A program made the position numbers and the translations under genes. From Spirochaetia bacterium (lineage in GTDB: Bacteria > Spirochaetota > Spirochaetia > WTKD01 > G963693115), in the NCBI GenBank assembly GCA_965226055.1, contig CBDDCA010000005.1, positions 320,001 through 384,000 on the forward strand: DNA of 64,000 nt, in the 5' to 3' direction. Of the stretch, positions 1-64,000 are shown one piece after another; positions within the stretch are counted from its first letter, which is position 1; each line of letters begins with the position of its first letter. The notes under the pieces were generated by a model. The model was not told where the DNA came from, did no database searches, and worked only from the letters and a program-made list of their open reading frames with translations.

Positions 1-299
1 GCTGGTGTCGTTGATGTAGCTTTTACAACTACATGCGTAGCATCGCTTGGAGCTTCCCAGCGTAACGAGAGCGTCCCATCATTGCCTGCTGCTTGTATCT
101 GCACATTGGACACTGATGCGAGTGTCGGGGTTACTGGCGTTCCCCCTCCGCCTGATGAGGAACTGCTACTCTCTGCACATCCTACGAGTACGAGGGTAGT
201 CATTACTAGCACTAAAATCAGTGCAACTAGAGTTATACTATACTTACTTTGTAGCTTACCATTTAGCTGATAGTTTAGTTTTTCATTACTTTTTTTCAT
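1..299 (-). CDS. 5' part of a large surface lipoprotein paralogous to 17641-22334 and 33337-38038 (runs off the left edge); in frame, no poly-G
   Basis: Manual translation from ATG 299 (AAGGAG at 306-311): [69 protein letters not shown]..., nearly identical to the N-termini of the two large paralogues; lipobox LVGC. Missed by the ORF track because it is truncated. Confidence 0.9.
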   Translation of the reverse strand, partial: MKKSNEKLNYQLNGKLQSKYSITLVALILVLVMTTLVLVGCAESSSSSSGGGGTPVTPTLASVSNVQIQAAGNDGTLSLRWEAPSDATHVVVKATSTTP

Positions 300-403: not shown

Positions 404-424
404 AAAAAAAAAAAAAAAAAAAAA
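404..424. repeat. A21/T21 homopolymer tract
   Basis: 21 consecutive A on the plus strand, 105-125 bp upstream of the ATG at 299. Confidence 0.9.
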
Positions 425-11102: not shown

Positions 11103-11307
11103 TTTTCCTCCTTGTAACTACATATATGTAATATATTATTAAACTATTACTTTTTTGTCAATACATTTTCTCAAAATAACTGAAAAATCTTAAAAAATGT
11201 GTATATATACGTAATGGAAGCCTGAAAATATCACTTTATTAAAAAAAATTGAAATATTTTGAAAAAATATGTACATATACTTATAAAAAATATAATATAA
11301 TTAAGAT

Positions 11308-11757: not shown

Positions 11758-11874
11758 AAGAAACATCCTTTCTTTTATAGCCTTACTGTTTTGCATGCAC
11801 TGATTGTATCTTTCGTCAATATGTCTCTGAGCTATAGGAAATCAGTGCATGCCATTTTCTATTGGCAAGTGCTT
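11757..11874. repeat. Direct repeat of 12382-12499 (offset 625), including the last 59 bp of apt
   Basis: Near-identical sequence aaagaa..cctttcttttatagcc...ttggcaagtgctt in both places. Confidence 0.9.
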
Positions 11875-11944
11875 TCTGTAAAAAAATCTGAAGATATCTT
11901 GGAAAGAGTAGTATATATCCTGAAAAAAATATATAATATAAGAT

Positions 11945-12382: not shown

Positions 12383-12440
12383 AAGAAGCGTCCTTTCTTT
12401 TATAGCCTTACTGTTTTGCATGCACTGATTGTATCTTTCG

Positions 12441-12974
12441 TCAGTATGTTTCCGAGCTATAGGAAATCAGTGCATGCCATTTTCTATTGGCAAGTGCTTC
12501 TTCAAAAGGAAGAAAATCAAGTGCAATGATACTTGCCACTTCCTCTACTTGAGCACCATTTGCTTCAAGCAGTTCGCACGCTGCCCTTGCGGTACCACCA
12601 GTAGCAAGAAGATCATCAAACAACACTACTTTTCCATGCGGTACATCCTCAGGGTGTAATTCTACTTCATCTGCACCGTACTCCAGAGAAAAACTTTTTC
12701 TTTGTGTCTTGCGTGGTAGTTTGCCTGCTTTTCTTACAAGCAACAGTGGAAGCTGTAGTTTGTATGCTACTGGAGAAGCAAAGATAAATCCACGAGAATC
12801 TATTGCTACTATCGCAGCTATTCCACTATTTCTATATCTTTCTTCGTACTCATCAATAACTTGTGCAAATACCGTAGGCTGTAATAATATCCCTGTAATA
12901 TCATAAAATAATATTCCTGGTTTCGGAAAATCTTTTACCTTCAATATTGCATTATCTAACGCTGTTTTATCCAT
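12441..12974 (-). CDS. apt: Adenine phosphoribosyltransferase
   Basis: DFPKPGILFYDIT, IDSRGFIF, RKAGKLP, LEYG, DDLLATGGT; AAGGAG upstream of ATG 12974. Confidence 0.96.
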   Translation of the reverse strand: MDKTALDNAILKVKDFPKPGILFYDITGILLQPTVFAQVIDEYEERYRNSGIAAIVAIDSRGFIFASPVAYKLQLPLLLVRKAGKLPRKTQRKSFSLEYGADEVELHPEDVPHGKVVLFDDLLATGGTARAACELLEANGAQVEEVASIIALDFLPFEEALANRKWHALISYSSETY

Positions 12975-17606: not shown

Positions 17607-17637
17607 AAAAAGAGAGTGCTATGCACTCTCTTTTTTT
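17607..17637 (-). terminator. Intrinsic terminator after the large lipoprotein gene A
   Basis: AAAAAGAGAGTGC-TAT-GCACTCTCTTTTT immediately past the stop codon. Confidence 0.8.
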
Positions 17638-17640
17638 ATG

Positions 17641-20600
17641 CTAATTCCTACATTCTGGAGAATTAGCACCCTTGGGAAACTGTAATGGTTTCTTCGCCAT
17701 AGCTGAACCTTGGAAATCAAAAGCATCTACAAGTGTTGAACACAATTTCCATGATGACAAATTTTGATCAAATGCACTAGCCTCACTAAACATACTGGAA
17801 AAATTACTAAGTTTCTTAAAACTCCATTTACTTATATTTTGATTAAAAGCACTTGCTTTCCTAAACATTTGCTGAGTCGTAGTAACACTCTTCACATTCC
17901 AGTTTGCTATGTCTTGATTAAAAGGAGTACCAAAAAACATATTTTGCATACTAGTAACTTTACTCACATCCCAACTTCCTATATCTTGATTAAAAGCAGT
18001 ATTAGCAAACATATTTTGCATATTAGTAACTTCACTCACATCCCAACTTCCTATGTCTTGATTAAAAACAGTAGCTTCCTGAAACATATAACTCATATCA
18101 TTTACGCTACTTGTATTCCACAGTGTTATATTTCCATTAAAAGTACTATCATCCTTGAATAATTCACTCATATCAGTAATAGCACTGATATCTATCATGC
18201 TGAGGTTGGGGCTATTGGTGTTTTGTCTGCTTGCTCCTTTTTCTGCAGTGATAATATCTTGCAGTGCTTTCTTTGTCGTTGGTCTGTAATAAGTAGCTGA
18301 CTGTCCTGATGGTGCTGTTCTTAGCTCTGTCTGTATAACGATAGTGGCTGGCACTTTTTTCTTTGAAGCAGTAAGAGTACACTGTGCTACATCATAGCTA
18401 TATTCAGTAATAGCAGTATCTCGTATATTAGACTTATTTGCTATGCCTGTTATAGTAACTGTTTTGCTATTCTGATCAAATGATACTGCTAGCCCCGTCT
18501 CTTTTTTGATTTTCTCTGCATCTACCTCTAGTATGTTTGCATCACAGGTAAAGGCATTGCCACTGGGTGTGCTTGCTAGTACTCTTGTAGTATTTTGTGC
18601 GAGTGCTGTGCCTACTATTGCTGATACAACTGTGGCATTTCCTATCGCTACTGCTGGCGTGCTGGCAGATACTGCTGTTGCTTCTGCTGATACCTTTGTC
18701 TTTTTGAGGCTGTTTACTGCTACTGCGGTGATATAGTACTTTGTATTCAATCGTAGGTTGCTTATTGTATAGCTTGTTGCTCCTGTTGGTACATCGTCTT
18801 TTTCTGCTCCTTCTTGTGCATCGCTTGCTCCTTGTGCCTGTGTTTTTACTGTTGCTCCATCTATGTTTGTTTTTGAGGCTGCGTAGTATACTATATAGTC
18901 TATTTGATTATCTCTTAAATCAGTTCCTTCTGCTGTCGTTCCTTTTACGGTTGGGGCTGTTATGGTAAGTACTATAGTAGCTCCTTGTGCATTTGCTTGT
19001 ATGGTGGGCTTTCCTGGTGCGGCATAGGCTTCTTTTGCGATAAACTCCTTGCGTAGTCCTGTTGCTTCTTTGCTGGTATCAGTACTGTTTACTGCTTGCA
19101 CTACTATTTCGTAAGTTGTGCCTACTGTCAATCCTGTCAGAGTGCTGTTGGTTGTGTCTGCTGCTATTGCTGTGGAGCTTCCTGCTGCTGTTTTTATTGC
19201 TGCTACGCTTTTTGCACTGCCACTTTTGGCTACTTTGTATACTTTGTACGATACTTGTGCTACTGTTAGGGTGTCTCCTTTGTTTGTTTTGTGGCTTGCA
19301 TTGAGACTGGGGGCTGTCCACGATAGCCTTGCACTCCCTCCTGTTACTCCTCCTACTTGTATGTTGCTTACTTCTGCGGGAGCAGTCGCTTGTGATGCGG
19401 TTGTTACACTTGCCACTGACGATGCTACTTTTTTGCTTGTGTCTGTTTTTACTGCTACTTCTACCACAAAGTGATACTTTGTTGCTCCTTTTATTGCTAC
19501 TACTGGTGCTGTGTCTTCAGACAAACCTAAACTGCTAAGGGCTGATACTGTGTACACTCCGCTACTTGCTGTGCCTATGTTTACTTTTCTGCCTCTTTGT
19601 ACTTCTGCTACTGTAGGTGTTGTGTCTTTCTGTAAGCCGTATACTGTGTATACTAGCTCATCATTGCTTGTTACTGTTGTGCCATCTTTGTTTTTTGCTC
19701 CTGTTATTGTGCTTAACTGTGTGAGTACGAGCTTTATTGTTCCTACTGTGTTTGTTGAGGGTGATACTACCAGCTTACCTGTTAAGGACGATGTAGGGGC
19801 TGTTGCTTTTGAGGTGGGGATAGTGCTTAATTCTAGTTTTTGTATTAGTGCGGGATCTTTACTTTGTGCTTTCTTTGTTGCATAGGGATTGAGGCTGTTT
19901 ATTGCTTCTATGCCTATGGTGTACACTGCTCCCTTTGTTCCTATAAATGTTCCTCGTAAGCTGCTGTTTCCTGCTATCTCTTGTGTTTGTACTCCTCCTA
20001 TTGCTTTTATTTCCGCTATAGTTTTAGTACTCTGGTCTCCTGCTACTATGTATACTTTGTACTGTATTTGTGCCTGTGTGAGTTGTCTGTCATTGGGTGC
20101 TTTATGGTTGCTGGTAATTGTTCCTTTTTGAAACTCGTACTGTACGGTATCGCTTGTTACTGTTGATGTTTCGATAAACAGAGTGAGATTCTCTGGTGCT
20201 GGGGGGACAGTGGATACTGCATCATATACTGCTACTTTGTCAGTAAGCGTTGTTGGGGGACTTACTCTGTTATTCTCTACTGTGAGAAAGGTAAAGCTAT
20301 AGCTTTTTGCATTTGCTTGTGTTGATGATACTTCTACGCCATCTGCTATGCCAAAGCTAATGGTGGTAGCTGTACTTGTTATGCTTTTTTCTGCTACCAA
20401 GTTTGTGCCATCTAACATACGCAGAGTGTAGTACTTATTTGATCCAGGAGCTTGCTTAAAAGTTGCTTTTATTTGTATTGCTCCTGTACTTGTATCAAGT
20501 GTAGGCTTGCTTTGAAAGAGATCTTCTGAGGGAGCTGTGAGTGAGTTGGGGGTGCTTATGTCTTTTATGGCTTGGGTGCTTTTGTTTTCTGAGTAATCAT

Positions 20601-22334
20601 AGGTGAGTATTGTTACGGTATATGTTTTGCCTTGCGTGAGTTCTTCGACAGAGAGTGACTTTGTGGGATAGGGTATTTTCTTCTCGCTCAGTACTGCGGT
20701 GCTTGTATCTTTCTCTGCTATGCTCACGCTGTATTCTTTTATGTCCTTGTTATTAGCTTTTGTTGTATCGGGGGCTGTCCATGTTATCTGTGTGCCTATC
20801 TTTGCTGCTGATACAAAGGGATAGCTTGATTGTATGTTTGTTACTGCATCGGGGGCGGTGCTATCTGCTGATGTGCTGACTGTGGCTGTTGCTTCTGTTC
20901 CTTTGTTGCCTGCACTGTCCATCGATACGACTGCCACTGTATACTCGGTGGTTGCTTTTAGTCCTGTTATTTGTGTGTTGCGTACTGTTCGATCTGTTAT
21001 TGTTACTGTCTTTGTTGCTGTTGTGCTGTCCTTTTCTGTTGCTGTTATAGTCACTCCTGCATAATCTCGTACATCGGGGGCTTGCCAGCCTACTACTAGG
21101 CTTGTTGCTCCTCCTACTGCACTTACATTGGTCGCGGGCTTTGTTGTTTTGTCTGTTGTTGCTTGTTCTTTTGACACTGCAGTGGAGTACTTTCCGTTTT
21201 GAGAAACATACACTTCTACTTTGTACGTAAGCGTGCCATAGAGTTTTGTGAGTGCTATGCCATCTTTTGCTACATACACAGTGGCGTACTCTTGATTGTC
21301 TGCACTTGCAGAACTGAGTTTGGCTGTACTGCTATTGTTCACAGTTGCTTCTGCTACTACTGTATTTGTTGCTTTTGTTGTTACTCGTACTAAGAGGCTT
21401 TTGTCGGTAAAGGCAAAGCTCCCCCACTTAATAAGCAGGCTCTCATCGGCTGGGCTATTGCTTTTATCGTTTGCTGTTACTGTAAGATCTGCCTCTGGCA
21501 GTGGCGTTACTGTTTGTGAAAGCTGGGATGCTTGCACGCCTGTCAATACTGTTGTAGGACTGCTTGTGTTGTCATTTCTGTCTTTGTAGCGTATTTCTAC
21601 ATCATAGGATATGCCTGCAAGCGTGGAGACCTTTGGAAGCGTAACTTCTCCTTGCTGTAGGTTCTGCACGGTAGCTTGCGCAAGCACTATGCCACCAGTC
21701 GTGCTTTTTACCACTATCGTTGCTTCGGCTATGTCTGTCTTGCCTGATGCAAGTCGTTCTTTATCCCATGTTATCTTTATGCCATCCCCCGACTTCTCTA
21801 CTCCTACCTGTGTCAATGTGTCCTGTGGTGCAGTAGTATCTATCAGTGTTGTCACTGAGCGTGTTGTTTTTGGTGATACTTCCGTGTCTTTTTGTGCTTC
21901 TATCTCTACGGTGTAGTCGGTGAGTGCTTGTAAGCCTTTGAGTTGGTACGATTGTCCTTGTTGAAAGAGCGTTTGATATTCTATGGCAGGAACACGCACT
22001 TGTATTGATTGTGCTGGTGCTGTTGAAGTTGCAGTCACTACTACATGCGTGGCATCGCTGGGAGCTTCCCAGCGTAACGAGAGTGTCCCATCATTGCTTG
22101 CTACTTGTATCTGCACATTGGACACTGATGCAAGTGTCGGGGTTACTGGTGTTCCCCCTCCGCCTGATGAGGAACTGCTACTGCCCTCCGAACATCCTAC
22201 GAGTACGAGGGTAGTCATTGCTAGCACTAAAAATAATGCTACTAGAGTTAGGCTTTGCTTATATCGAGAGTGTACCCCCCCCCCCCGATTTTTTTCACGC
22301 TGTATAGCTCATCGTTTTGATAGCTATTATTCAT
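17641..22334 (-). CDS. Large surface lipoprotein A: FN3/Ig-like stalk plus C-terminal BspA/DUF285 LRR; frameshifted at G12 (about 1564 aa when in frame)
   Basis: AAGGAG 22342-22347, ATG 22334, G12, lipobox LVGC, FN3-like motifs ([36 protein letters not shown]) and [20 protein letters not shown] repeats. The track ORF begins at 22227. Confidence 0.88.
22275..22286 (-). repeat. Poly-G tract (G12) in the signal-peptide coding region
   Basis: 12 C on the plus strand; G10 or G13 would join ATG 22334 to the long ORF. Confidence 0.92.
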
Positions 22335-22390
22335 AAAAATACTCCTTACTATTTGTTTTATTGTATATAGTATTATACACAATAGTTATT

Positions 22391-22419
22391 ATAGTACAAA
22401 ATAGTATTTCATGTGTCAA
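22391..22419 (-). promoter_or_regulatory. Sigma-70-type promoter for lipoprotein gene A
   Basis: TTGACA (22414-22419)-N17-TACTAT (22391-22396) on the minus strand. Confidence 0.6.
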
Positions 22420-22424
22420 AGAAC

Positions 22425-22456
22425 ATAGCAAGAAAGGAGCTATCCTTTCTTGCTAT
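22425..22456. terminator. Conserved 3' hairpin of the lipoprotein family
   Basis: ATAGCAAGAAAGGA-GCTA-TCCTTTCTTGCTAT; also at 33281-33315 and 63514-63549. Confidence 0.7.
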
Positions 22457-22477
22457 AGCTCCGTTTCTATAGGTATG

Positions 22478-24070
22478 CTACGAGGAGGCACACGCTGTTG
22501 TATCAGTACTATCCTTTGGATGCTTTGCTGTTTTACTCTCCATAGCTGAACCTTTGAAATCTTCAGCATTAGATTGCAATCTTGTTTTACACAATTTCCA
22601 TGATGATAAATTTTGATCAAATACAGATGCATCTGTAAACGCATAAACAAAATGAATAATATTATTCACATTCCACTTTCCTATATTCTGATTAAAGGAA
22701 CTTGCTCCTCTAAACATATAAGCCATATTAGTAACCTTGCTCACATTCCAATTTCCTATATCTTGATTAAAAGCAGTAGCCTTATCAAACATATGATACA
22801 TACTAGTAACCTTGCTCACATCCCAATTTCCTATATCTTGATTAAAATCACTTATGCTTGTTCCTCTAAACATATGAGCCATAATTTCAACATTGCTTAC
22901 ATCCCAGCTTCCTATGTTTTGATTAAAATCACTTGCTCCATCAAACATAGACTCCATATTGCTTACATTACTGGTATTCCATTGTGTTATATCTCCATTA
23001 AAAGGACCATTATCCCGAAATAAAGCACTCATATCAGTAATAGCACTGGTATCTACCATGTTGAGGTTAGGGCTATAAGTATTTTGTCTCCCTACTTCTT
23101 CTTCTGCCTCAATAATCTCTTGCAATGCTTTCTTTGTTGTTGGTCTATAATAGGTAGTTATTTCTCCTGATGGTGCTGCTCTTAGTCCTGTCCTTATAAT
23201 AATGCTTGCTTTTACTTTTTTACTTGAAGCAGTAATTGTACATTGTACTACATCATAGCTATAGCTTGTAATGGCAGGATCATGTACATTTGATTTGTTT
23301 GCTATACCTGTTACGCTCACTGTCTTGCTACTCTGTTCAAACGATACTATGAGGCCTGTTTCTTCTTTGATTTTCTTGCTATCTGCCTCCAGTATGTTTG
23401 CATCACAGGTAAAGTCAGAGTTACTGCTGAGTACTCTCGTACTATTTATTGCTGGGGTTTTGCCTACTTCTGCTGAAACCTCCGTAGTGTTTCCTATAGA
23501 CACTGTACTTTTTGCTTGCTTGGAACTCCGTTGTGCCTGAAACTCATAGCGTAATCCAGTGGATGCTTTTGTGGTATCGGTACTGTTCACTGCTTGTACG
23601 ACTATCTCGTAGGTCGTTCCGTTTATCAATCCTGTCAAAGTAATGTTTGTTGTTCCTGCTGTTACTGTTTTTGGGCTTTTATCTGCTGTTTTTATTTGTG
23701 CCACTGTCCTCTGTATACTGCCACTCTTAGCAATGCTATATACTTTGTACGATACTTGTGCTACTGTTAGGGTATCCCCTTTGTTTGTTTTATGGCTTGC
23801 ACTGAGGCTGGGAGCTGTCCATGATACTCTCATGCCTGTTGAGGTTACTCCTGTTTGTATGTTTGTTACTTCTGCAGGAGCTGTCGCTAGCGATGTGGTT
23901 ATTTTTCTTGCTACTGATGAGGGACTGCTACTACTCTCTTCACATCCTATCAAAAAGAGGGTAACCACTGCAAACACCCATGCCAGTGTAATACAAGTTA
24001 TCCTGTACATATTATATTGAGAGTATGCTCTCCCAATTTTTTCCATGTTGTGTAGCTCTCTATGTATCAT
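22478..24070 (-). CDS. Medium BspA/DUF285 lipoprotein (one FN3-like domain, Cys-pair linker domain, LRR), 530 aa
   Basis: AAGGAGG upstream of ATG 24070; lipobox LIGC; FN3-like segment similar to those in genes A and B; six Trp-anchored repeats. Confidence 0.88.
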   Translation of the reverse strand: MIHRELHNMEKIGRAYSQYNMYRITCITLAWVFAVVTLFLIGCEESSSSPSSVARKITTSLATAPAEVTNIQTGVTSTGMRVSWTAPSLSASHKTNKGDTLTVAQVSYKVYSIAKSGSIQRTVAQIKTADKSPKTVTAGTTNITLTGLINGTTYEIVVQAVNSTDTTKASTGLRYEFQAQRSSKQAKSTVSIGNTTEVSAEVGKTPAINSTRVLSSNSDFTCDANILEADSKKIKEETGLIVSFEQSSKTVSVTGIANKSNVHDPAITSYSYDVVQCTITASSKKVKASIIIRTGLRAAPSGEITTYYRPTTKKALQEIIEAEEEVGRQNTYSPNLNMVDTSAITDMSALFRDNGPFNGDITQWNTSNVSNMESMFDGASDFNQNIGSWDVSNVEIMAHMFRGTSISDFNQDIGNWDVSKVTSMYHMFDKATAFNQDIGNWNVSKVTNMAYMFRGASSFNQNIGKWNVNNIIHFVYAFTDASVFDQNLSSWKLCKTRLQSNAEDFKGSAMESKTAKHPKDSTDTTACASS

Positions 24071-24229
24071 AAAGGCCTCCTTATTGTTATCTATTATTGT
24101 GCATATCATTATACACAATTATTATACAAAATAGTATTTCCTATATCTATGAAGCAAATGAAAAGAAATGAGCATTTCCTTTTTTGCTATAGATATATTT
24201 CTATACCATACTTCTATACTATGCTACGA

Positions 24230-25339
24230 TTATGTGCATGAACTACCAACCTTTGGGTACTGTGCTGTTTTTCCAGCCATAGCTGAACCTCGAAATACAT
24301 TGAAAGAAAAACTTGGTATACGACACCATTTCCATGATGATAAATCCTGATCAAATTTAGAAGCATTATAGAACATTCTCAAGGATGCATCGACATTTTT
24401 TACATTCCAGTTTCCTATATTCTGATTAAAGGCAATTGCTTCAAGAAACATACCAATCATATCAGTAACTTCTCCTGTATTCCAATTTCCTATGTTTTGA
24501 TTAAAAATACTTGCTCTCCAAAACATACCACCCATATCAGTAACTTCTCCCGTATCCCAATTTCCTATGTTTTGATTAAAAACACTTGCTCCCCAAAACA
24601 TACTGTGCATATTCTCTACATTACTTGTGTTCCACTGTGTTATATCTCCATTAAAAGTACTATCATCCTTAAATAAATTTTTCATATCAGTAATGGCACT
24701 GGTATCTATCATGTTGAGATTGGGGCTATTGGTGTTTTGCCTTCCCACTCCTCTTTCTGCAGTGATAATAGCTTTAAGTGCTGTCTTACCCGTTGGTCTG
24801 TAATAGGTAGGCGATGTCTCTCCTGATGGTGCTGTTCTTAGTCCTGTCCTTATAATAATGCTTGCTTTTACTTTTTTACTTGAAGCAGTAATTGTGCATT
24901 GTACTACATCATAGCTATAGCTTGTAATGGCAGGATCATGTACATTTGATTTGTTTGCTATACCTGTTACGCTCACTGTCTTGCTACTCTGCTCAAACGA
25001 TACTATGAGGCCTGTTTCTTCTCTGATTTTCTTGCTATCTGCTTCCAGTATGTTTGCATCACAGGTAAAGGCAGAGTTACTGCTGAGTACTCTTGTACTA
25101 TTTATTGCTTGTTTATTGCCTACTTCTGCTGAAACTACACTAGCGTTTCCTATAATTAGTGGTTTAGTTGTTTTGCTTGCTACTGATAAGGGACTGCTAC
25201 TGCTCTCTTCACATCCTATCAAAAAGAAGGTAGTCATTGCTAACACCCATGCCAGTGTAATACGAGTTATCCTGTACATATTATATTGAGAGTGTACTCT
25301 CCCAATTTTTTCCATGCTGTGTAGCTCTCTATGTATCAT
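24230..25339 (-). CDS. Short BspA/DUF285 lipoprotein (linker domain plus LRR), 369 aa
   Basis: AAGGAGG RBS, lipobox LIGC, linker domain nearly identical to that of the adjacent gene, five Trp-anchored repeats. Confidence 0.88.
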   Translation of the reverse strand: MIHRELHSMEKIGRVHSQYNMYRITRITLAWVLAMTTFFLIGCEESSSSPLSVASKTTKPLIIGNASVVSAEVGNKQAINSTRVLSSNSAFTCDANILEADSKKIREETGLIVSFEQSSKTVSVTGIANKSNVHDPAITSYSYDVVQCTITASSKKVKASIIIRTGLRTAPSGETSPTYYRPTGKTALKAIITAERGVGRQNTNSPNLNMIDTSAITDMKNLFKDDSTFNGDITQWNTSNVENMHSMFWGASVFNQNIGNWDTGEVTDMGGMFWRASIFNQNIGNWNTGEVTDMIGMFLEAIAFNQNIGNWNVKNVDASLRMFYNASKFDQDLSSWKWCRIPSFSFNVFRGSAMAGKTAQYPKVGSSCT

Positions 25340-33280: not shown

Positions 33281-33315
33281 CTATAGCAAGAAAGAGCTAT
33301 CCTTTCTTGCTATAG
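33281..33315. terminator. Conserved 3' hairpin of the lipoprotein family
   Basis: CTATAGCAAGAAAG-AGCTATC-CTTTCTTGCTATAG. Confidence 0.7.
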
Positions 33316-33336: not shown

Positions 33337-36300
33337 TTATGTACATGCTGGATTACCTTTAAAAATCTTTGGGTGCTTGTTTGTTTTACTTTCCATAGCT
33401 GAGCCTTTGAACTCAGTAGATGATATTTGACCGTGTGAACACAATTTCCATGATGATAAATCTTGATCAAAATTACTAGTATTTTTAAATATATCAAAAA
33501 GATTTATAACATTCTTTACATTCCATTTTCCTATATTTTGATTAAAAGCACTTGCGCCACTAAACATACCATTCATAATAGTAACTTTGCTCACTTCCCA
33601 GCTTCCTATGTCTTGATTAAAAGCACTTGCGCCATTAAACATATTGTCCATCTCAGTAACTTTGCTCACATCCCAACTTCCTATGTCTTGATTAAAAGCA
33701 GAAGCTCTACCAAACATAATACCCATATTAGTTACTTTACTCACATCCCAACTTCCTATGTCTTGATTAAAAACGCTTGCACGCAAAAACATAGAGCGCA
33801 TATTCTCTACATTACTGGTGTTCCACTGTGTTATGTCTCCATTAAAAGTACTATCGCTACTAAATAAACTAAGCATATCAGTAATAGCACTGGTGTCTAT
33901 CATGTTGAGGTTGGGGCTATTGGTGTTTTGTCTCCCTGCTCCTCTTTCTGCAGTGATAATATCTTGCAGTGCTTTCTTTGTCGTTGGTCTATAATAGCTA
34001 GCTACTTGTCCTGCTAGTTTCACCAGTCCTGTCTCTACATTGATAGTCGCAAGTGCCTTTTGTCCCGAGTATGCTCCTGCAGAAGTAATGGTACACTCCA
34101 CTACCTCGTAGTTATACTCAGTTATAGCAGTATCATGTATGTTTGATTTATTTGCTGTACCTCTTATTGTTACTGTATTGGTATTTTTTGCAAATGTTAC
34201 TGCTAAGCCTGTTTCTTCTTTGAGTGTGCTGTCATCTAATGTGCTTTCATCACAGGTAAAGGTAAGTCCACTAGGACTGATACTGGTAAGTACTCTCGTT
34301 GTATTTTGTGCGAGTGCTGTGCCTACTGTTGCTGATACCTTTGTGGCGTTTCCTATCGCTACTGCTGGGGTGCTGGCAGATACTGCTGTTGCTTCTGCTG
34401 ATACTTTTGTCTTTTTAAGGCTATTTACTGCTACTGCGGTAATATAGTATTTTGTATTCAATCGTAGATTGCTTATTGTATAGCTTGTTGCTCCTGTTGG
34501 CACATCGTCTTTTTCTGCTCCTTCTTGTGCATCGCTTGCTCCTTGTGCCTGTGTTTTTACTGTTGCTCCATCTATGTTTGTTTTTGAGGCTGCATAGTAT
34601 ACTATGTAATCTATTTGATTATCTCTTAAATCAGTTCCTTCTGCTGTCGTTCCTTTTACGGTTGGGGCTGTTATGGTAAGTACTATGGTTGCTCCTTGTG
34701 CATTTGCTTGTATGGTGGGCTTTCCTGGTGCGGCATAGGCTTCTTTTGCTATAAACTCCTTGCGTAGTCCTGTTGCTTCTTTGCTGGTATCGGTGCTATT
34801 TACTGCTTGCACTACTATTTCGTAAGTTGTGCCTACTGTCAATCCTGTCAGAGTGCTGTTGGTTGTGCCTGCTGCTACTGTTGTGGAGCTTCCTGCTGCT
34901 GTTTTTATTGCTGCTACGCTTTTTGCACTGCCACTTTTGGCTACTTTGTATACTTTGTACGATACTTGTGCTACTGTTAGAGTGTCTCCTTTGTTTGTTT
35001 TGTGGCTTGCATTGAGACTGGGAGCTGTCCACGATATTGTTGCATTGCCTCCGTCTACTCCCCCTACTTGTATGTTGCTTACTTCTGCGGGAGCTGTCGC
35101 CTGTGATGCGGTTGTTACAGTTGCCACTGTCGATACTGCTTTTTTGCTTGTGTCTGTTTTTACTGCTACTTCTACCACAAAATGATACTTTGTTGCTCCT
35201 TTTATTGCTACTACTGGTGCTGTTTCACTAGACAAACCTAAACTGGCAAGAGCAGAGACAGTGTATACTCCGCTACTTGCACTGCCTATGTTTACTTTTC
35301 TGCCTCTTTGTACTTCTGCTACTGTTGGTGTTGTGTCTTTCTGTAAGCCATACACTGTGTATACTAGCTCATCATTGCTTGTTACTGTTGTGCCATCTTT
35401 GTTTTTTGCTCCTGTTATTGTGCTTAACTGTGTGAGTACGAGCTTTATTGTTCCTGCTGTGTTTGTTGAGGGTGATACTACTAGCTTGCCTGTTAAGGAC
35501 GATGTAGGGGCTGTTGCTTTTGAGGTGGGGATAGTACTCAGTTCTAGTTTTTGTATCAGTGCAGGGTCCTTGCTTTGTGCTTTCTTTGTTGCATAGGGAT
35601 TGAGGCTGTTTATTGCTTCTATGCCTATGGTGTACACTGCTCCTTTTGTTCCTATAAATGTTCCTCGTAAGCTGCTGTTTCCTGCTATCTCTTGCGTTTG
35701 CACTCCTCCCATTGCTTTTATTTCCGCTATAGTTTTAGTACTCTGGTCTCCTGCTACTATGTATACTTTGTACTGTATTTGTGCTTGTGTGAGTTGTCTG
35801 TCATTGGGGGCTTTGTGCTTACTGGTAATTGTTCCTTTTTGAAATTCGTACTGTACGGTATCGCTTGTTTGTGTTGATGTTTCGATAAACAGAGTGAGAT
35901 TTTCTGGTGCTGGGGGGACAGTGGATACTGCATCATATACTGCTACTTTATCAGTGAGCGTTGTTGGGGGGCTTACTCTGTTATTCTCTACTGTGAGAAA
36001 GGTAAAGCTATAGCTTTTTGCATTTGCTTGCGTTGAGGATACTTCTATGCCATCTGCTATGCCAAAGCTAATGGTGGTTGCTGTGTTTGTTATACTTTTT
36101 TCTGCTATCAAGTTTGTGCCATCTAACATACGCAGAGTGTAGTATCTTCCTATGCCTGGAGCTTGCTTAAATGTTGCTTTTATTTGTATTGCTCCCGTTG
36201 TTGTAACTAGGGCAGGCTTGCTTTGAAAGAGATCTTCTGAGGGAGCTGTGAGTGAGTTGGGGGTGCTTATGTCTTTTGTTGCTTGGGTGCTTTTGTTTTC

Positions 36301-38038
36301 TGAGTAATCAAGCGTGAGTATTGTTACGGTATATGTTTTTCCTTGCGTGAGTTCTTCTACAGAGAGTGATATTGTGGGATAGGCTACTTTTTTCTCATTC
36401 AGTACTGTGGTGCTTGTGCCTTTCTCTGCTATGCTTATGCTGTATTCTTTTATGTCTTTGTTGTTGACTTTTGTTATATCGGGGGCTGTCCACGTTATCT
36501 GTGTGCCTACTTTTGCTGCTGATACAAAGGGATAGCTTGCTTGTATGCTTGTCACTGCATCGGGGGCGGTGTTATCTGCTACTGTATCTACTGTGGCAGT
36601 TGCTTCTGTTCCTTTGTTGCCTGCACTGTCCATTGATACTACTGCCACTGTATACTCGGTGGTAGCTTTGAGGCCTGGTATCTGCGTGTTGCGTACTGTT
36701 CTCTCTGTTATTGTCACTGTCTTTGCTGCTGTTGTGCTGTCCTTTTCTGTTGCTGTTATAGTCACTCCTGCATAGTCTCGTACATCAGGGGCTTGCCAGC
36801 CTACTACTAGGCTTGTTGCTCCTCCTACTACACTCACATTGCTTACAGGCTCTGTGCTTTTGTCTGTTGTTGCTTGTTCTTTTGACACTGCAGTGGAGTA
36901 CTTTCCGTTTTTAAAAACATACACTTCTACTTTGTACGTAAGCGTGCCATAGAGTTTTGTGAGTGCTATGCCGTCCTTTGCTACATACACAGTGGCGTAC
37001 TCTTGATTGTCTGCACTTGCAGAACTGAGTTTGGCTGTACTGCTATTGTTCACAGTTTCCTCTGCTACTACTGTATTTGTTGCTTTTGTTGTTACTCGTA
37101 CTAAGAGGCTTTTGTCCGTAAAGGTAACATTTCCCCACTTGATAAGCAGGCTCTCATCGGCTGGGCTATTGCTTTTATCGTTTGCTGTTACTGTAAGATC
37201 TGCCTCTGGCAGTGGCGTTACTGTTTGTGAAAGCTGTGATGCTTGCACGCCTGTCAATACTGTTGTAGGACTGCTTGTGTTGTCATTTCTGTCTTTGTAG
37301 CGTATTTCTACATCATAGGATATGCCTGCAAGCGTGGAGACATTTGGAAGTATAACTTCTCCTTGTTGTAGGTTCTGCACGGTAGCTTGTGCAAGCACTA
37401 TGCCACCAGTCGTGCTTTTTACCACTATCGTTGCTTCGGCTATATCTGTTTTGCCTGATGCAAGTCGCTCTTTGTCCCATGTTATCTTTATGCCATCCCC
37501 CGACTTCTCTACTCCTACCTGTGTCAATGTGTCTTGTGGTGCAGTAGTATCTATCAGTGTTGTAACAGAGCGTGTTGTTTTTGGTGATACTTCTGTGTCT
37601 TTTTGTGCCTCTATCTCTACAGTGTAGTCGGTGAGTGCTTGTAAGCCTTTGAGTTGGTACGATTGTCCTTGTTGAAAGAGTGTTTGATATTCTATTGCAG
37701 GAACACGCACCTGTATGGACTGTGCTGGCGTTGTTGATGTAGCTTTTACGACTACATGCGTGGCATCACTGGGAGCTTCCCAGCGTAAAGCAAGTGTCCC
37801 ATCGTTGCTTGCTACTTGTATCTGCACATTGGACACTGATGCGAGTGTCGGGGTTACTGGCGTTCCCCCTCCGCCTGATGAGGAACTGCTACTGCCCTCC
37901 GAACATCCTACAAGTACGAGGGTAGTCATTGCTAGCACTACTAGTATAGTTAGGTTTTGCTTATACAAGAGTGTACCCCCCCCCCCCCCCGATTTTTTTC
38001 ACGCTGTATAGCTCTTTACTTTTGTAGCTATCATTCAT
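33337..38038 (-). CDS. Large surface lipoprotein B (paralogue of A with a different LRR tip); frameshifted at G15 (about 1566 aa when in frame)
   Basis: AAGGAG 38046-38051, ATG 38038, G15, lipobox LVGC; near-identical to A over about 1200 aa, then a divergent DUF285 region. The track ORF begins at TTG 37968. Confidence 0.88.
37976..37990 (-). repeat. Poly-G tract (G15) in the signal-peptide coding region
   Basis: 15 C on the plus strand; G14 or G17 restores the frame. Confidence 0.92.
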
Positions 38039-47802: not shown

Positions 47803-50800
47803 CTATTTAGAAGATGGTCCTGTATAGGTTCCTCCTGCCCAATCTGGTGTCTTATGTCTTATAGCAGTACCAGCAAATGCATTTATCGCATTAACCTTTT
47901 TTGATCCAAAATGTTCTTTCCATTCATAGATATCTCTATCAAATGCTGTTGCACCATTAAACATGTGAAACATATTAGTAAGACTGCTGACATCCCACCC
48001 TGCTATATCCCTATTAAACGCATGATTGTCCCAAAACATATTTTTCATATTTTTAACCTTACTTACATTCCAGCCTGATATATTCGCACTAAATGGGCGA
48101 GCATAGCGTAACCCATAGGATGAAAACATATGTTCCATATTCGTAACATTACTGACATCCCAGCCTCCTATACGACTATTAAAACCATCTGTGCTTGCAA
48201 ACATATAGCTCATATCTGTCACTTTCCCTACCTTCCAGTCTTTTATATCTCCAGTAAATTTTGATTGTTGAAACATATATGCCATATCGGTAACATTACT
48301 CACATCCCACCTTGATATATCCCCATTAAATTTCGATATATAAAACATAGATCGCATAGTGGTAACATTACTCACATCCCAGTTTGATATATCCTTATTA
48401 AAACTCGATTCATGAAACATACCTTTCATACTTGTCACATTCCCTACCTTCCAGTCTGATATATCTCCATTAAATCTTGAATTACGAAACATATTGTACA
48501 TAAATTTCACATTATCTACCTTCCATTTTGATATATTCCCCTTAAATGATGTATTAATAAACATATTACTCATATCGGTAACATTACTCACATCCCACCC
48601 CGATATATCTCCCCTAAATGATGATGTATGAAACATACTACTCATATCGGTAACATTACTCACATCCCACCCCGATATATCTCCGTTAAATGATGATGCA
48701 TGAAACATACCTCCCATATCGGTAACATTACTCACATTCCAACCTGATATATCCCCATTAAATTTCGATTTATAAAACATACCTCTCATATTTTTCACTT
48801 TATCTACCTTCCACCCCGATATATCTCCGTTAAATGATGATGTACTAAACATACTTTCCATATCTTCTACTTTATCTACCTTCCAACCCGATATATCTCC
48901 ATTAAATGATGTACCCCAAAACATACGATTCATATCGGTAACATTACTCACATCCCATCTTGCTATATTCCCATTAAATTTTCTCAAAAAACGATCATTA
49001 AATACCTTACTCATATCCCTAATATTTCCTGTGTATATGACATTCAAATCTGCTCTATTATTAGTAGATATCATCTGCCTTATTGCTTTTATCAATTCTG
49101 CTTTATTCGTAGGTCGATATTGATATGTCCAGCTTGGTATTTTATCATTAGGTATCTTAGTCCTATCAAATATCCCTGGTATGTTTATTTTCCTTCCTGC
49201 TACATGCTCTCCCCATGCTTCTAAATCTTGATTAAACTCTGTTGCTCCGTTAAACATATATGCCATAGTAGTTACTGTATCAACTGCCCAGCCCGATATA
49301 TCTTGATTAAAGGCAGTTGCCTTGTAAAACATATAATCCGTATCGGTAACTTTCTTTACATTCCACCTTGATATATCTCCATTAAATTGCGCATAAGCAA
49401 ACATAAAGTACATAGTAGTAACATTACCGACATCCCAACCCGATATATCTTTAGTAAATGGCGAATCATAAAACATTGCTTCCATATCAGTAACATTACT
49501 TACATCCCATTTCGATATATCCCCATTAAATTGCGATTTATAAAACATATGTTCCATATTACCAACACTACTTACATCCCAGCCTGATATATCCCCATTA
49601 AATTGCGATTCACGGAACATCCAGTACATCTGTTCTACATCACTTACATCCCAGCCTGATATATCTCCAGTAAACTGCGATTTATAAAACATACCTTGCA
49701 TATATCTCACATTGCTTACATCCCAGCTTGATATATCTCCAGTAAATCGACTCTCCTTAAACAAATTTCGCATATTTCTCACATTACTTACATCCCAGCC
49801 CGATATATCCCCATTAAAACTTTTCAAAGCACTGTCATAAAATACCTCACGCATATCTCTTATGTATCCTGTATATATTCCATTCAAGTCTGCTGTGTTC
49901 CCATCAGGGTTACCATCCCCATCAGCATCTGCTGCCATCACCGTTTTTATATTTGCTATCAAAGCACTCTTTGTTTTTGGGTAGTATGTATATGTACCAC
50001 TGCCGTCATATATGTGTATGGTAAACTCTTTTGTACGCCTTTTTCCTGCATAATCACCAGTCCCTGTAAACACAATTATATATTTTCTCAGTGCAAGTGC
50101 TTTTGTAGGACTTCCGCTTATTGTTCCATTCACTGCACTAAATGTCAAGCCTGTGTCTGCAGTAAAGGTACTTGGCAGTATACTATAGTCCCCTGTCGCA
50201 TTAAATGTACTCACTCCAGTATTAGTCAATGGAATACTAATGTTCTGTTGCCCTTTTACCATAGTAAATAATGAAGCAACATTGCCTCCATATCTCTGTG
50301 ATATGCTATATATCCAGCTCGGTATATTTTCATCAGAAACATTAGCACCGGTAAATATATTTCCCTTATCCACTGTTCTTCCTGCTATATGCTCTCCCCA
50401 TGCTTCTAAATCTTGATCAAACGCTGCTGCTTTGCGAAACATGTCTTTTATGGTAGTTACACTATCAACTGCCCACCCTGCTATATCTCCATTAAATTTC
50501 GATTGATAAAACATGGCATACATGTTTGTAACATTACTTACCTTCCACTTTGATATATCTCCATTAAATGATGATCCCCAAAACATATATTTCATATTAC
50601 CAACACTACTTACATCCCATTCTGATATGTCTCCAGTAAATGGCGTTTCAGTAAACATTGCTTCCATATCAGTAACATTACTTACATCCCATTGTGATAT
50701 ATCTTCATTAAATGGTGCATAGGAAAACATATAGTGCATAAAAGTAACATTACTTACATCCCAGCCCGATATATCCCCATTAAATTTTGATTGATAAAAC

Positions 50801-53800
50801 ATTGTTCGCATGGTTGTAACATTACTTACGTCCCATTGCGATATATCTCCATTAAATTGCGATTGATAAAACATAGATCGCATGGTTGTAACATTACTTA
50901 CGTCCCATTGCGATATATCTCCATTAAATTTTTTCAAATCACCATAACTACTAAATAACTTATACATATCCGTGATATTCCCCGTATAGATGACATTCAA
51001 ATCAGCACTGTTATCATTAGGACTCCCATCATCATTGGTATCCATCACATCCTTTATCGCTGCTATCAACTCCGCTTTATTGGTAGGAGAGTAACTATAC
51101 TTTCCTGCTGCTACTGTCATGATAAATGGTATCTCATAGCTTTTGCTTGCATAGTCTCCTGTTCCACTAAAGAGCAGTGTATAGCTTTTTGTACTTTGTA
51201 CTTTTGTTGGACTCCCACTTATCGCTCCTGTACTTGCATCTAAGCTAAGCCCTATATCTGTTATGCTCGGAGAGATAGTATAACTCCCCACTGCCGTAGT
51301 AGGCAATTTCTTACTTACTGTTATTACCCCATCTGCTTCTATGGCTTTGCCTACAAACCCACTTATAGTACTGCTTTCGGTTCCTCCAACTGTAAGCACA
51401 AAATCGTAGAGCCATGTAGGTATGTTTTTATCAGAGAGTATCACTCCACTATTATCTGCGGTATTGAATATTTTATCAGTATTTACTGTTCTTTCTGCTA
51501 TATGTTCTCCCCATGCTTCTAAATCCTTATCAAAGGCTGTTGCCCCTTGAAACATTGACTCCATAGTAGTCACAACATCAACTGCCCAGCTTGATATATC
51601 TTGATTAAATGCTCCTGTTTCACTGAACATCTGTTTCATAGTAGCTACCTTGCTTACATTCCAATAGGATATGTCCTTATCAAATGCTGTGTTCTTATAG
51701 AACAGTAATTCCATATCTGCAACATTTCGAACATCCCATAGGGTTATATCATTGTTATACGCTGTTTCTCGAAACATCTCGTTCATAGTTGTGACATTCC
51801 TTACATCCCAGCCTGATATATCCCCTGCATATGATGATTTCTTAAACATATCATTCATATCTGTTATGTTCCCTACATCCCAACTTGTTATGTCTCCATT
51901 TTCTCCTGTAAACTTCGATTCTTCAAACATACTGTCCATCGTAGTTACATTACTTACATCCCAGCCCGATATATCCCCATTAAAATTTCTCAAGGCACTC
52001 TCATTAAATATCCCACTCATATCTGTTATATACCCTGTATATATGACATTCAAGTCTGCTGTATTCCCATCAGGGTTACCATCTCCATCAGCATCTGCTG
52101 CCATCACCGTTTTTATATCTGCTATCAAAGCTGCATTTGTTTTAGGGGTATAAGTATAAGCACTCACATCCTGTATCGTGAGAGTGAGAGGGGTACTTTT
52201 TTTCCTGCCAACATACCCTCCATTTCCTGTAAATGTTATGGTATACTCTTTTGTAGCCAATGCTACCGTAGGAGAACCACTTATCTCTCCAGTTGCTGTA
52301 TCAAATGTCAATCCTGTATCTGTAGTAAATGTATTGGGTACTACACTATAAGTTCCTGTTGCTGCTTTTGGTGTTTTGTCAATAGACAGAACAATATTTT
52401 TATCACTCGTAGTGAACACTTTCTTATTTACTGTAACGCCTGTATCTTTGTACACAAGAGTATATACCCATGATGGAATTTTTTCATCAGGTAAATGAGA
52501 AAATATACCTGTTATATCCAGTGATTTTCCTGATTCTGTTATCTCTGGTATATGCTCTCCCCATGCTTCTAAATCTTGATCAAACGATGTTGCACCATTA
52601 AACATTTTATACATAGTAGTGACTTTCTCAACATTCCACCCTGATATATTCTGATTAAAGACTTTTGATTGATAAAACATTGTCCGCATAGTAGTAACAT
52701 TACTTACATCCCAGCCCGATATATCCCCATTAAATGACGAATCCCAAAACATATGTTTCATATTACCAACACTACTTACATCCCATCTTGATATGTCTCC
52801 AGTAAATGGCGTTTCAATAAACATTGCTTCCATATTAGTAACATTACTTACATCCCAGCCCGATATATCCCCATTAAATTGCGCATAGGCAAACATAAAG
52901 TACATAGTAGTAACATTACTTACATCCCATTTTGATATATCCCCATTAAATGGTGCATAGGCAAACATTATTGCCATATTAGTAACATTACTTACATCCC
53001 AGCCCGATATATCCCCATTAAATGACGAACCACGAAACATAGATCCCATATAAGTAACATTACTTACATCCCATTTTGATATATCCTCATTAAATTTCGA
53101 TTTATAAAACATAGATCCCATAGTAGTAACATTACTTACATCCCAGCCCGATATATCCCCATTAAAATTTCTCAAGGCACTCTCATTAAATATCCTACTC
53201 ATATCCGTGATATTCCCCGTATAGATGACATTCAAATCGGCACTGTTATCATCTGGCGTCCCATCACCGTTTATATCCATTACCTTTTTTATTGCTGCTA
53301 TCAATTCTGTTTTGTTATTAGGAAAATACGCATATTTCCCTTGATTTGACTTTACCTCTAATAAAAATGGGATAACAAGACTCTTGCCTTGAAACTTAGC
53401 GTCTCCAGTAAAAGTAATTGTATATGCTTTTTTTGCTACTTCTTGCGTTGCTATTCCTTTTATTATTCCCTTTTGTGCATCAAATGATAATCCTGTATCT
53501 GCACTAAGTGTATTGGGTGCTATACTATATTGTCCTGTCGCATGTGATGGAAATTGCTTTTTAATCCTCACTACTATGTTTTGATATTGCAACACAGTAA
53601 TATCGTTTATTCTTGCTTCTTGATATATCACATCAAACACATATGCCCATGTAGGTATCTTTTCATCAGACACACTAGCACTATCAAATATATCTGTTTT
53701 ATCTACTGTCCTTCCTGCTATATGCTCTCCCCATGCTTCCAAATCTTGATCAAACGCTTTTGTTGAATTAAACATATTCTCCATAGTAGTTACCGCATCA

Positions 53801-55226
53801 ACTGCCCAGCCTGATATATCCTGATTAAAGGCAGTCGCTCCTTCAAACATACCATCCATAGTGGTAACTTTCTTTACATCCCAATTTGATATATTTCCAT
53901 TAAATCGCGATCCACGAAACATCTCTTTCATTTCTCTTACATTACTGACATCCCAACTTGATATGTCCCCAGTAAATTGTGAGTCACGAAACATACTATT
54001 CATTTCTCTCACATTACTTACATCCCAGCCTGATATATTTCCAGTAAACTTTGATCCTCGAAACATCTCATTCATATATTTCACTTTACTGACATCCCAG
54101 CCCGATATATCTCCAGTAAAATGTTTCAACATACTATCATTAAATATACCACTCATATCCGTAATAGCACTGACATCAATGCTATTGAGATCTGCTGTAG
54201 CATTATCAATAATCCCATTCCCATCAGCATCTACTATCACTTTTATGAGTGCTATCAGCTCTGCTTTTGTCTTAGGTTGTGTCGAATAATCCTTCACTGA
54301 TACCGATACAGCTGCTTGCACATTTTTATTTACTGCTTTATCAAATTCTCCTGTCCCATTAAAAGTAACAGTAAACCTGTGAGGACTTCCTTTTGTTATC
54401 GTCTTAAGGTCTCCTGCATTTGCTGTTATTGTCCCTGTCGTACCATCAAAATTCATCCCTGTTGGAAGTACATCTCTCCCTACTAACACTGGGAGTAATG
54501 CAAATGTTCCTGTTGTTGTTACTGGCCACCGAGTGATAGACACATTCACTGCCCGTCCTACTATTGCTACTACTACCTTTGGCTCTAACAGCACCTCTAA
54601 TGTCAACCATCTGGGATCCTCAGTAACTCCCGAATTCTTAAATACATCTTTACTCACTTTACTTACCGCAGGTGCTACTGCCCATTGCTTCAGATCCTGA
54701 GTAAAAGCAGCTGTTCCTTCAAACATGCTGTTAATCTGTTTTACATTACTTACATCCCAGCCTGATATATCCCCATTAAATTTGGTCGCTCCCTTAAACA
54801 TAGTATTCATGTTTGTTACTTTGCTTACATCCCACCTTGATATCCCTCCACGAAACCCTGTCACTCCTTCAAACATACCACTCATATTTGTTACATGGCT
54901 TACATCCCACTCCGACACATTGCCACTAAAGGTAGGAAACTGCACAAACAAATTACTCATATCAGAAACCTTACTTACATCTATATCGTTTAAGTCTGCT
55001 GCCTTGTCTTTACTCAACCGCTCAGAGATAAGCTGTAATAATTGTTCTTTTGAGCTAGGTTGTACCTTTCCTCCTCCCCCTCCTGGAGCAGGAGAAGATC
55101 CTCCACCAGAGCCCCCTCCTGGAGCTTCACAACCCAATAGTAGTAGTACTAGTATCAATAGTAGCATTACCCCCCCCCCCCCCATATATACAGATTGCTA
55201 TGTATAAACAAATTATTTTTTCTCAT
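47803..55226 (-). CDS. Giant BspA/DUF285 lipoprotein: seven LRR blocks and five putative Ig-like spacers; frameshifted at G14 (about 2474 aa when in frame)
   Basis: AAGGAG 55233-55238, ATG 55226, G14, lipobox LLGC, 24-aa FNGDISGWDVSNVTxMxxMF repeats, spacers with GL(S/T)(F/L)DxxTGxIxG. The track ORF begins at 55185. Confidence 0.88.
55170..55183 (-). repeat. Poly-G tract (G14) in the signal-peptide coding region
   Basis: 14 C on the plus strand; G12 or G15 restores the frame from ATG 55226. Confidence 0.92.
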
Positions 55227-63513: not shown

Positions 63514-63549
63514 CTATAGCAAGAAAGGAGCTATCCTTTCTTGCTATAG
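63514..63549. terminator. Conserved 3' hairpin of the lipoprotein family (perfect 16-bp stem)
   Basis: CTATAGCAAGAAAGGA-GCTA-TCCTTTCTTGCTATAG. Confidence 0.7.
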
Positions 63550-63569: not shown

Positions 63570-64000
63570 CTATGAGCTACACTCTGCAGATCCTTTGAAT
63601 TTTGGATATCTGCTTGAAACTCTGTCTAAAGGTGAACCTACAAACATATTATTAATTGAAGTTCCTGGTTTAAATTCACACATTCTCCACGATGATAAAT
63701 CTTGATTAAATACAGTGGTACCAGAAAACATACCTGTTGCTGTAGAAACATTTTCAACATTCCATCCACTTATATTTTGATTAAATTTACTAGCTACAGC
63801 AAACATATCATTCATATCAGTAACCTCACTCACATCCCAATCTCCTATGTCTTGATTAAATACAGAAGCAAAGGCAAACATACTATTCATATTCGTTACA
63901 TTACTGGTATTCCACTGTGTTATATCCCCATTAAAAGTACTATCTCTAAAAAATAAATCACTCATATCAGTAATGGCACTGGTATCTATCATGTTGAGGT
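63570..64000 (-). CDS. 3' end of another BspA/DUF285 gene (starts beyond the right edge)
   Basis: [13 protein letters not shown]-cap shared with the paralogues, four Trp-anchored repeats, Cys-pair C-cap. Confidence 0.88.
   Translation of the reverse strand, partial: LNMIDTSAITDMSDLFFRDSTFNGDITQWNTSNVTNMNSMFAFASVFNQDIGDWDVSEVTDMNDMFAVASKFNQNISGWNVENVSTATGMFSGTTVFNQDLSSWRMCEFKPGTSINNMFVGSPLDRVSSRYPKFKGSAECSS

Follow-up and report, generated by a model that had tools for sequence, protein, structure and literature searches.

We analyzed a stretch of 64,000 nucleotides (nt) of a Spirochaetia bacterium (GCA_965226055.1, contig CBDDCA010000005.1, positions 320,001-384,000; hereafter, the window), which carries seven related genes, A-G, for putative lipoproteins with DUF285 repeats. 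In our judgment there is about a three in four chance that these genes belong to a dispersed, phase-variable and recombining repertoire of surface lipoproteins, organized like the Opa proteins of Neisseria. An earlier note on this DNA had described five of the genes (A, C, D, B and E, ending at 17641, 22478, 24230, 33337 and 63570) as constant scaffolds with variable leucine-rich repeat (LRR) tips. That observation is confirmed as real, and as larger and better supported than could be seen from the window, and its center shifts to a frame-switched, recombining repertoire to which F and G are added.

In the proposed mechanism, each gene would encode a lipid anchor, about ten FN3-like modules, a linker and, as its tip, an LRR-like DUF285 domain. 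The exposed stripe of the tip, made up of repeat positions 15, 17, 18, 21 and 22 and the cap loop, would form a binding or recognized surface. A run of 11-18 guanines, which follows the start codon and precedes the hydrophobic segment of the signal peptide, would slip during replication and turn each gene on or off independently, such that the subset on display would differ among cells and amount at any time to roughly a quarter to a third of all members; the anatomy of the runs is observed, and from it we infer the switching. As the comparison of two genomes shows, homologous recombination among the paralogs, which cross over where they have stalk, N-cap or 3' hairpin sequence in common, homogenizes stalks within a genome and moves linkers and tips between loci, and reciprocal events would probably rearrange the chromosome too. 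Diversifying selection would then favor point changes at the exposed stripe. Genes C and D would form a short, always-open subtype.

The extent of the family was assessed by searching a linker plus N-cap profile against 185,579 genomes. It matched 38 stretches at 32 loci, all in one genome, OZ244590.1, a Spirochaetia metagenome-assembled genome of 2.36 Mb. Because five housekeeping genes are 96-98% identical between the window and OZ244590.1, with 0.08-0.13 synonymous differences per site (pS), we regard the two organisms as the same or sister species. The analyzed loci of this relative (L001 and so on) make up 27% of its chromosome and contain 39 family genes, a minimum count, taking up 7.3% of the chromosome length. 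Like the seven in the window, they form separate complete loci; 36 of the 39 are seen from the 5' end, one of them being now without a signal peptide, and an additional frameshift is present in two genes. Positional counterparts of the window genes were assigned by flanking genes.

All five genes of the earlier note end where it had placed them, on the minus strand. They share the N-cap motif LxM(I/V)DxSAITDM (five of five), preceded by YYRPT..RQNTxSPN in the four genes where the window shows that part. The reported numbers of repeat units, six (A), six (C), five (D), six (B) and four (E), are correct with inclusion of the last unit, which continues into the cap, and all seven quoted variable xMxxMFxx words and five two-Cys cap loops were located. 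A and B had been called near-identical with different tips, and the identity between them is indeed 94.6% in the stalk (1,176 codons) and 60.8% in the tip. As for the nested lengths ascribed to the tandem trio D-C-A, 369 and 530 amino acids (aa) are exact and A covers 4,691 nt (about 1,564 codons) from its ATG at 22334; however, this span is not a whole number of codons, and the nesting is loose, as the single FN3 module of C matches A residues 965-1094, the second-last stalk module and not the last. Translation table 11 reads all window genes; genetic code 4 was tried and rejected, the apparent longer frame of B being a read-through of an upstream TGA that is not needed. A lipobox-like motif was recognized by pattern in A, B, C, D, F and G. 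The family features of the window are as follows.

17641..22334, minus strand: gene A, predicted lipoprotein with signal peptide, about 10 FN3-like modules, linker and DUF285 tip; out of frame at the G run as sequenced.
22275..22286, minus strand: G12 run in the N-region of the A signal peptide; the run is G14 at L001:11217, the positional counterpart.
18646..22194, minus strand: A stalk from the lipobox Cys, Ser/Gly tether plus predicted beta-sandwich chain (Pfam fn3, model and Foldseek FN3 matches).
18292..18645, minus strand: A linker, about 118 aa, beta-rich with low model confidence, lineage-restricted.
18169..18291, minus strand: A N-cap (YYRPT...LxMIDxSAITDM), the most conserved among five DNA blocks compared.
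17641..18204, minus strand: A tip, DUF285/PARCEL repeats plus two-Cys cap, the cap from 17772.
17607..17635, minus strand: type-2 3' hairpin after A, a type found in 13 of 44 genes.
22478..24070, minus strand: gene C, 530 aa, one FN3 module, linker and tip; no G run, in frame.
22420..22462, minus strand: type-1 3' hairpin after C, a type found in 28 of 44 genes.
24230..25339, minus strand: gene D, 369 aa, comprising just linker and tip; in frame and without G run; not present here in the relative.
33337..38038, minus strand: gene B, long-stalk paralog, mosaic, out of frame as sequenced.
37976..37990, minus strand: G15 run in the signal-peptide N-region of B.
33337..33996, minus strand: B N-cap plus tip, the putatively exchanged segment.
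33281..33315, minus strand: type-1 3' hairpin after B (z -6.1).
63570..63998, minus strand: tip of gene E, which leaves the window at the right end.
63514..63549, minus strand: type-1 3' hairpin after E.
1..299, minus strand: 5' end of gene G (ATG at 299), a further long-stalk paralog, in frame and without G run, leaving the window at the left end.
404..424, minus strand: T21 run (A21 on the plus strand), 105-125 nt upstream of gene G.
47803..55226, minus strand: gene F, predicted giant lipoprotein of 2,460 aa with seven DUF285 modules and Ig-like spacers, without the two-Cys cap; out of frame as sequenced.
55170..55183, minus strand: G14 run in the signal-peptide N-region of F.

Genes A and B are not open from their start codons, as their G12 and G15 runs put both out of frame. 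Their long open reading frames (ORFs) have no proper start; ATGs linked to ribosome-binding sites lie at 22334 (A) and 38038 (B), the runs follow 16 codons past the ATG, and the frame ends after 28 (A) and 25 (B) codons. Gene F has the same arrangement, and all three genes are out of frame; automatic annotation loses the signal peptide of each such copy. The window contains three G/C runs longer than six, all at the signal-peptide coding site of A, B and F, and about 0.0003-0.006 runs of at least 12 are expected by chance in 64 kb. Genes C and D carry GGGAGAG at the matching place and both are open.

A simple repeat in the signal-sequence coding region is present in three of the six window genes with a visible start and in 30 of the 35 relative genes with a visible signal peptide. 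In the latter it is a G run of 11-18, which leaves seven genes in frame and 23 out of frame, and the two run lengths at the locus of A (G12 and G14) differ between the genomes. The out-of-frame genes of the relative are otherwise intact in 22 of 23 cases, and their stalks show nonsynonymous (pN) and synonymous differences of 0.086/0.243 (22 genes), compared with 0.087/0.232 in six in-frame genes. With their genes otherwise preserved and purifying selection as strong as on the in-frame genes, the out-of-frame copies show the pattern of switching loci and not of decay. A more distant family member, P0124, has five glycines in its signal N-region (seen at the protein level only). A bypass start at an ATG within the hydrophobic stretch (MTTLVLVGC) was considered and rejected, most paralogs having ATA there.

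Besides the G runs, the only other long run in the window is the A21 upstream of gene G. Runs of T13-T17 lie upstream of 10 family genes in the relative, in a context like that of the T21 of gene G, and a T run upstream of Helicobacter pylori sabA reportedly tunes its promoter (PMC4081817); a promoter scan around T21 gave one site, with 2.4 expected. One family gene of the relative (L032:5873-6100) is without start and signal peptide just past a T15 run and has an open frame of 1,650 codons; it is a possible silent donor. A G41 run at L030:18991-19031, outside any family gene, is possibly an assembly artifact.

The tip repeats can be assigned to the DUF285/PARCEL units by their matches to PF03382 (184-1498 bits, cut-off 25; E per tip of 2e-55 to 5e-58, far above chance) and TIGR02167 (38-489 bits, cut-off 30) in six of six window repeat proteins. 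The unit is 25 aa long in 150 of 174 cases, with conserved hydrophobic and variable polar positions. A fixed hydrophobic frame with variable polar positions was described for DUF285/PARCEL in 2010 (PMC2996958), and since the tips belong to this family, their fixed framework with variable x positions is a family trait. The threshold of 500 of the Mbov_0838 family (NF045896) was not reached by A-E (97-141), and the 956 of F is attained only as a sum over 21 repeat stretches. In the coding DNA, no dyad symmetry was detected: reverse-complement self-scores of 24-32 do not exceed codon shuffles (means 28-36), and the search yielded only imperfect pairs of 14-19 nt, PMC2996958 having applied a different motif method.

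A structural model of the B linker and tip, built from 41 aligned sequences, gives the repeats a predicted local distance difference test score (pLDDT) of 86-98, and beta-bridges recur in it at 25-residue intervals, at position 15 of the unit. The proposed LRR-like character of the tip is borne out by its top 50 structural matches, all of which are LRR proteins (Z 8.7-13.1). The best is TpLRR (6mlx; Z 13.1, root-mean-square deviation 3.6, 182 aligned), and the FNIP/FGxxFN LRR protein (7zal; Z 10.3) has the highest identity (19%) and a common FNQxI..W motif; both are alike in fold without a significant sequence match, and many LRR classes fall within 1-3 Z. Foldseek with the tip model returned nothing at E 0.001, with variable lymphocyte receptor (VLR) rows at E about 1. 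The canonical LxxLxLxxNxL is not present, the consensus being VxxMxxMFxxAxxFNQDIGxWD, and no Pfam LRR family matched at E 0.001; a profile of 41 tips found no LRR chain in the PDB at E 10. No solved DUF285 structure was found by sequence, the CutS and TmpA rows being noise. The tip is thus predicted by modeling to fold as an LRR-like solenoid on an FN3 stalk, its LRR class not being fixed.

The model of the A stalk shows about ten beta-sandwich modules, one of low confidence (predicted template modeling score 0.31), and its Foldseek matches are FN3 chains. The linker is modeled with pLDDT 40-63. Its profile has eight matches among 1.84 billion representatives, all but one short protein pairing it with FN3 and/or DUF285, and the ESM Atlas searched with the linker and N-cap gave only leads under 0.9. 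A homolog search with D returned, beyond the window's own two proteins, only DUF285 repeat matches (among the best 120 of 330).

Tip diversity is nearly complete, with 44 of 44 caps and 173 of 174 repeat units being unique. Among 25-residue units (40 first, 82 middle), entropy peaks at positions 17, 18, 21 and 22 (2.6-3.6 bits) and 15, and F1, I5, W8 and F20 are fixed. The contrast between a fixed framework and hypervariable x positions drawn in the earlier note is upheld in the first repeats of the relative (35 of 39 genes, pS over all sites): pN is 0.62 at its x positions against a pS of 0.38, a ratio of 1.42-1.84 (bootstrap over genes), and 0.105 in the framework. This excess gives statistical support to the view that diversifying selection favors point changes at the predicted exposed stripe. 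Hydrophobic residues account for 17.6% at positions 17/18/21/22 compared with 2.6% at other non-core positions, as would be expected of a binding surface. The variable positions adjoin one another and line up with the beta-bridge ladder (position 15) and with the cap loop. Their face is argued from register: the FNIP register (PMC9525666) would point to the concave face and its edge, and the TpLRR register to the flank.

Tip swapping among loci, as proposed in the earlier note, stands in part. Three of four positional counterparts carry a different tip in the one relative compared, rather than the same tip being kept at each locus across strains. Nor are the domain trees congruent: the trees of stalk, linker and tip agree in 0-2 of 30 splits, and for each partition the topologies of the other two are rejected. 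They comprise 33 genes, 11 of the 44 having been set aside because they were short, partial, frameshifted, signal-less or doubled. However, the exchange is not tip-specific, as same-sized stalk blocks conflict as much; tip-specific swapping was rejected because 600-nt stalk blocks (32 genes) share only 1-3 of 29 splits among themselves. It could not be shown that the A and B tips are not a clade (p-AU 0.71). By these comparisons, the exchange appears to be general and slow and not a tip-specific fast switch.

The tip identity to the positional counterpart (rank among 43) is 58% for A (14th), 64% for B (18th), 62.5% for E (5th) and 90% for C (1st). The C tip is thus stable at its own locus (L001:9341), and the E tip, whose counterpart is L007:6248, best matches L016:6257 (69.7%). 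The B tip is 86% identical to that of L014:6245, which lies 1.4 Mb from B's counterpart, although the two stalks are only 74% alike; pS is 0.089 between these tips, within the housekeeping range, 0.34 between their stalks and 0.385 to the counterpart's tip. In 60-nt windows, the identity of B to L014 jumps from 26-47 to 53-58 of 60 nt at YYRP, stays there to the stop and falls after it. Gene B is therefore a mosaic, with a stalk like A, a linker and 3' flank like its counterpart L001:3 and a tip like L014:6245, and the breakpoints of its tip exchange are placed by this comparison at the conserved N-cap (5') and the terminator. The N-cap is the most conserved block (0.88-0.91), and a hairpin of either of two types follows 41 of 44 genes, which provides homology on both sides of the tip. 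The A stalk is nearest to B and not to its counterpart (95% vs 85%; from 600 nt onward B is nearest in 10 of the 11 stalk windows), and stalks are thus homogenized within a genome. Elsewhere in the relative, L023:10000-11040 and L010:10000-11010 have the stalk end, tip and 3' flank in common and unrelated linkers, as in a linker-only exchange.

Two synteny breaks relative to OZ244590.1 involve family genes. The first follows gene A (17641), where flgF is found in the window and a ribokinase in the relative. The second lies within 33698-46137, where B is the only family gene; its flanking blocks are 0.9 Mb apart and inverted in the relative, about symmetric around the point where the family genes switch strand. 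Crossovers in paralogs are the likely cause of both, and either single break may be a mis-join. At the place of gene F the relative has about 130 nt (L007:18808-18942).

Several points weigh against the phase-variable, recombining repertoire. It is known from assembled DNA alone, where switching is inferred and not observed; sequence assemblies are known to be unreliable at long G runs, and any single on/off call may thus be wrong. The in-frame fraction of 7/30 does not differ from one third (p 0.33), nor is the deficit significant with the window included (7/33, p 0.19). The tip tree is poorly resolved, a constrained tree having beaten the free one by 14.5 log units, and identical tracts reach no more than 75 nt among tips and 104 nt between the A and B stalks, so that exchange looks slow and of strain level. 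A mis-join across repeats could account for the single synteny break at A. Finally, the pairwise pN and pS counts are not independent and near saturation, and the comparison covers two genomes and the 27% of the relative's chromosome.

We consider it quite unlikely that the genes form a static DUF285 paralog family shaped by duplication and loss, with frame breaks as assembly errors or early pseudogenes and tip variety as neutral drift. DUF285 sets of 12-27 genes with variable polar positions are indeed known in mycoplasmas, according to the available text of PMC2996958, PMC2824730 and PMC10634449, and the short identical tracts, the retained tip of C and the simple absence of D and F from the relative would suit such a family. 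Errors, however, do not explain a long G run at one position in 33 genes with lengths of 11-18, the out-of-frame genes are intact and constrained, pN exceeds pS at the x positions, and the B tip requires two crossovers within about 660 nt, which a single mis-join cannot give. Fast assembly or conversion of tips from silent cassettes into expression sites, as in VLR, vlsE or TprK, is very unlikely. The B tip replacement is bounded by conserved blocks as a cassette conversion would be, nearly all repeat units are unique, and out-of-frame genes could serve as donors; but every tip lies within a long gene at a separate locus, no array of promoterless tip cassettes occurs in the window or the covered part of the relative, no tip pair is identical, and stalk blocks recombine as much as tips.

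A main role of height above the cell, with short, medium and long stalks and tips secondary, is highly improbable. It would draw on the mature lengths of the D-C-A trio (327, 488 and 1,517 aa) and on one relative protein of 2,579 aa. The display at different heights suggested in the earlier note does not agree with the mostly uniform lengths, as 31 of 33 intact relatives fall within 1,379-1,605 aa; moreover, D is missing in the relative, and the short genes have no switch. Adenine-directed mutagenesis of the tips by a diversity-generating retroelement is barely credible. A Treponema denticola lipoprotein is reportedly a target of such an element, the variable domain is here likewise C-terminal on a spirochete lipoprotein, and the third codon base at x sites is mostly T (108 of 122 at position 18). 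The variation is not adenine-centered, however (second base at position 18: G 49, C 31, A 26, T 16), and framework adenines stay fixed; no reverse transcriptase-like motif was found in 380 ORFs of at least 200 aa (a weak regular-expression test on part of the genome), and no template repeat in the window self-comparison (among the best 60 of 313 matches).

The switched and recombining repertoire favored here has a close functional parallel in Opa, an outer-membrane beta-barrel. Opa is likewise a multi-locus surface family in which a signal-sequence repeat sets the frame, few genes are in frame per isolate, and within-genome recombination and gene conversion reassort the hypervariable parts, as stated in the available text of PMC13183285. 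Opa has 9-12 loci with pentanucleotide repeats in that text, whereas here there are about 40 loci and a mononucleotide G run; the present proteins are predicted lipid-anchored, stalked and LRR-like, have no sequence relation to Opa, and do not show its in-frame deficit. Pfam gave only DUF285 and fn3 for them, and the models contain a solenoid and beta-sandwiches and no beta-barrel. By this analogy, the family would work like Opa without being Opa.

Lamprey VLRs are capped LRR-type solenoids with a variable stripe and a variable C-cap loop, carried on a stalk. The tips share this design as a structural analogy only; the VLR-like design of the earlier note thus applies to the protein and not to the genes, since there is no homology or cassette assembly, each locus is a complete gene and the diversity is germline, spread over complete loci. 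In Treponema pallidum tpr genes, poly-G phase variation acts through promoter-proximal runs on few genes, and in Borrelia vlsE silent cassettes feed one site. All are cases of spirochete surface variation, and the present one would be distinguished by in-coding frame switches on about 30 complete paralogs.

The family is a member of the DUF285/PARCEL or 'BspA family LRR' lipoproteins (PF03382, TIGR02167), which include the mycoplasma Drp, LppQ and LppC. The available text gives 12-13 genes in one mycoplasma repertoire (PMC2824730) and about 27 in another (PMC10634449), and phase variation of the former was thought unlikely (PMC2824730). The present set stands apart as a single homogeneous subfamily, at least 39 copies strong, that has the FN3 stalk in common, a linker restricted to the lineage, a two-Cys cap and a G run in most genes, and by its spirochete host ('spiroch' is absent from the main text of PMC2996958). 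A report of such a family in a spirochete was not found in the literature searched, most subscription papers being outside the search.

As to function, we somewhat favor an adhesive role toward variable ligands of a host or habitat; a role in evading phage, predators or recognition by a host is a more tentative possibility, and the two are not exclusive. A bolder and rather doubtful extension is an anticipatory binding library in which about 40 LRR-like paratopes under positive selection share one stalk design, random and independent frame switches (up to 2^30 states) sample them, cassette-like tip replacement between N-cap and terminator renews them at a pace measurable within a host population, and the same crossovers invert large parts of the chromosome; if true, an uncultured spirochete lineage would possess a bacterial analog, in function, of variable-receptor systems, directed at host ligands. 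DUF285 repeats are widespread and have no sequence-found structure or assigned ligand. The 44 recently diverged tips on one scaffold pinpoint positions that appear to be under diversifying selection, and the long-open question of the DUF285 ligand thereby becomes testable. Surface variation in the style of Opa, at about four times its locus number and on 7% of the chromosome, would imply strong selection at the surface of an uncultured organism.

In the window the family is surrounded by genes of housekeeping function (flgFG, ligA, prfA, prmC, acc, mla, rib), among which no transposase or recombinase was named (44 ORFs scanned). In the relative, a 744-aa FN3-DUF285 lipoprotein (L019:2695-4926, plus strand) represents a third type, with an F-like cap and no G run, beside an IS30-like transposase (L019:5159-6130, minus strand), and a 1,399-aa Cas9-like protein with RuvC III and HNH domains (L015:11197-15396, minus strand) is encoded directly downstream of a family gene. 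A 270-nt ribD-ribE intergenic piece of the window (61850-62120) is missing in L007 and 71% like L014:12464-12701. Tandem duplicate genes at 11240-12499 (plus strand; 149 and 145 aa, 81% DNA identity) have no Pfam or NCBIfam match. An isolated ParA-like ATPase (38715-39803, minus strand) and a NYN-domain protein (6856-7419, plus strand) are encoded amid the housekeeping genes.

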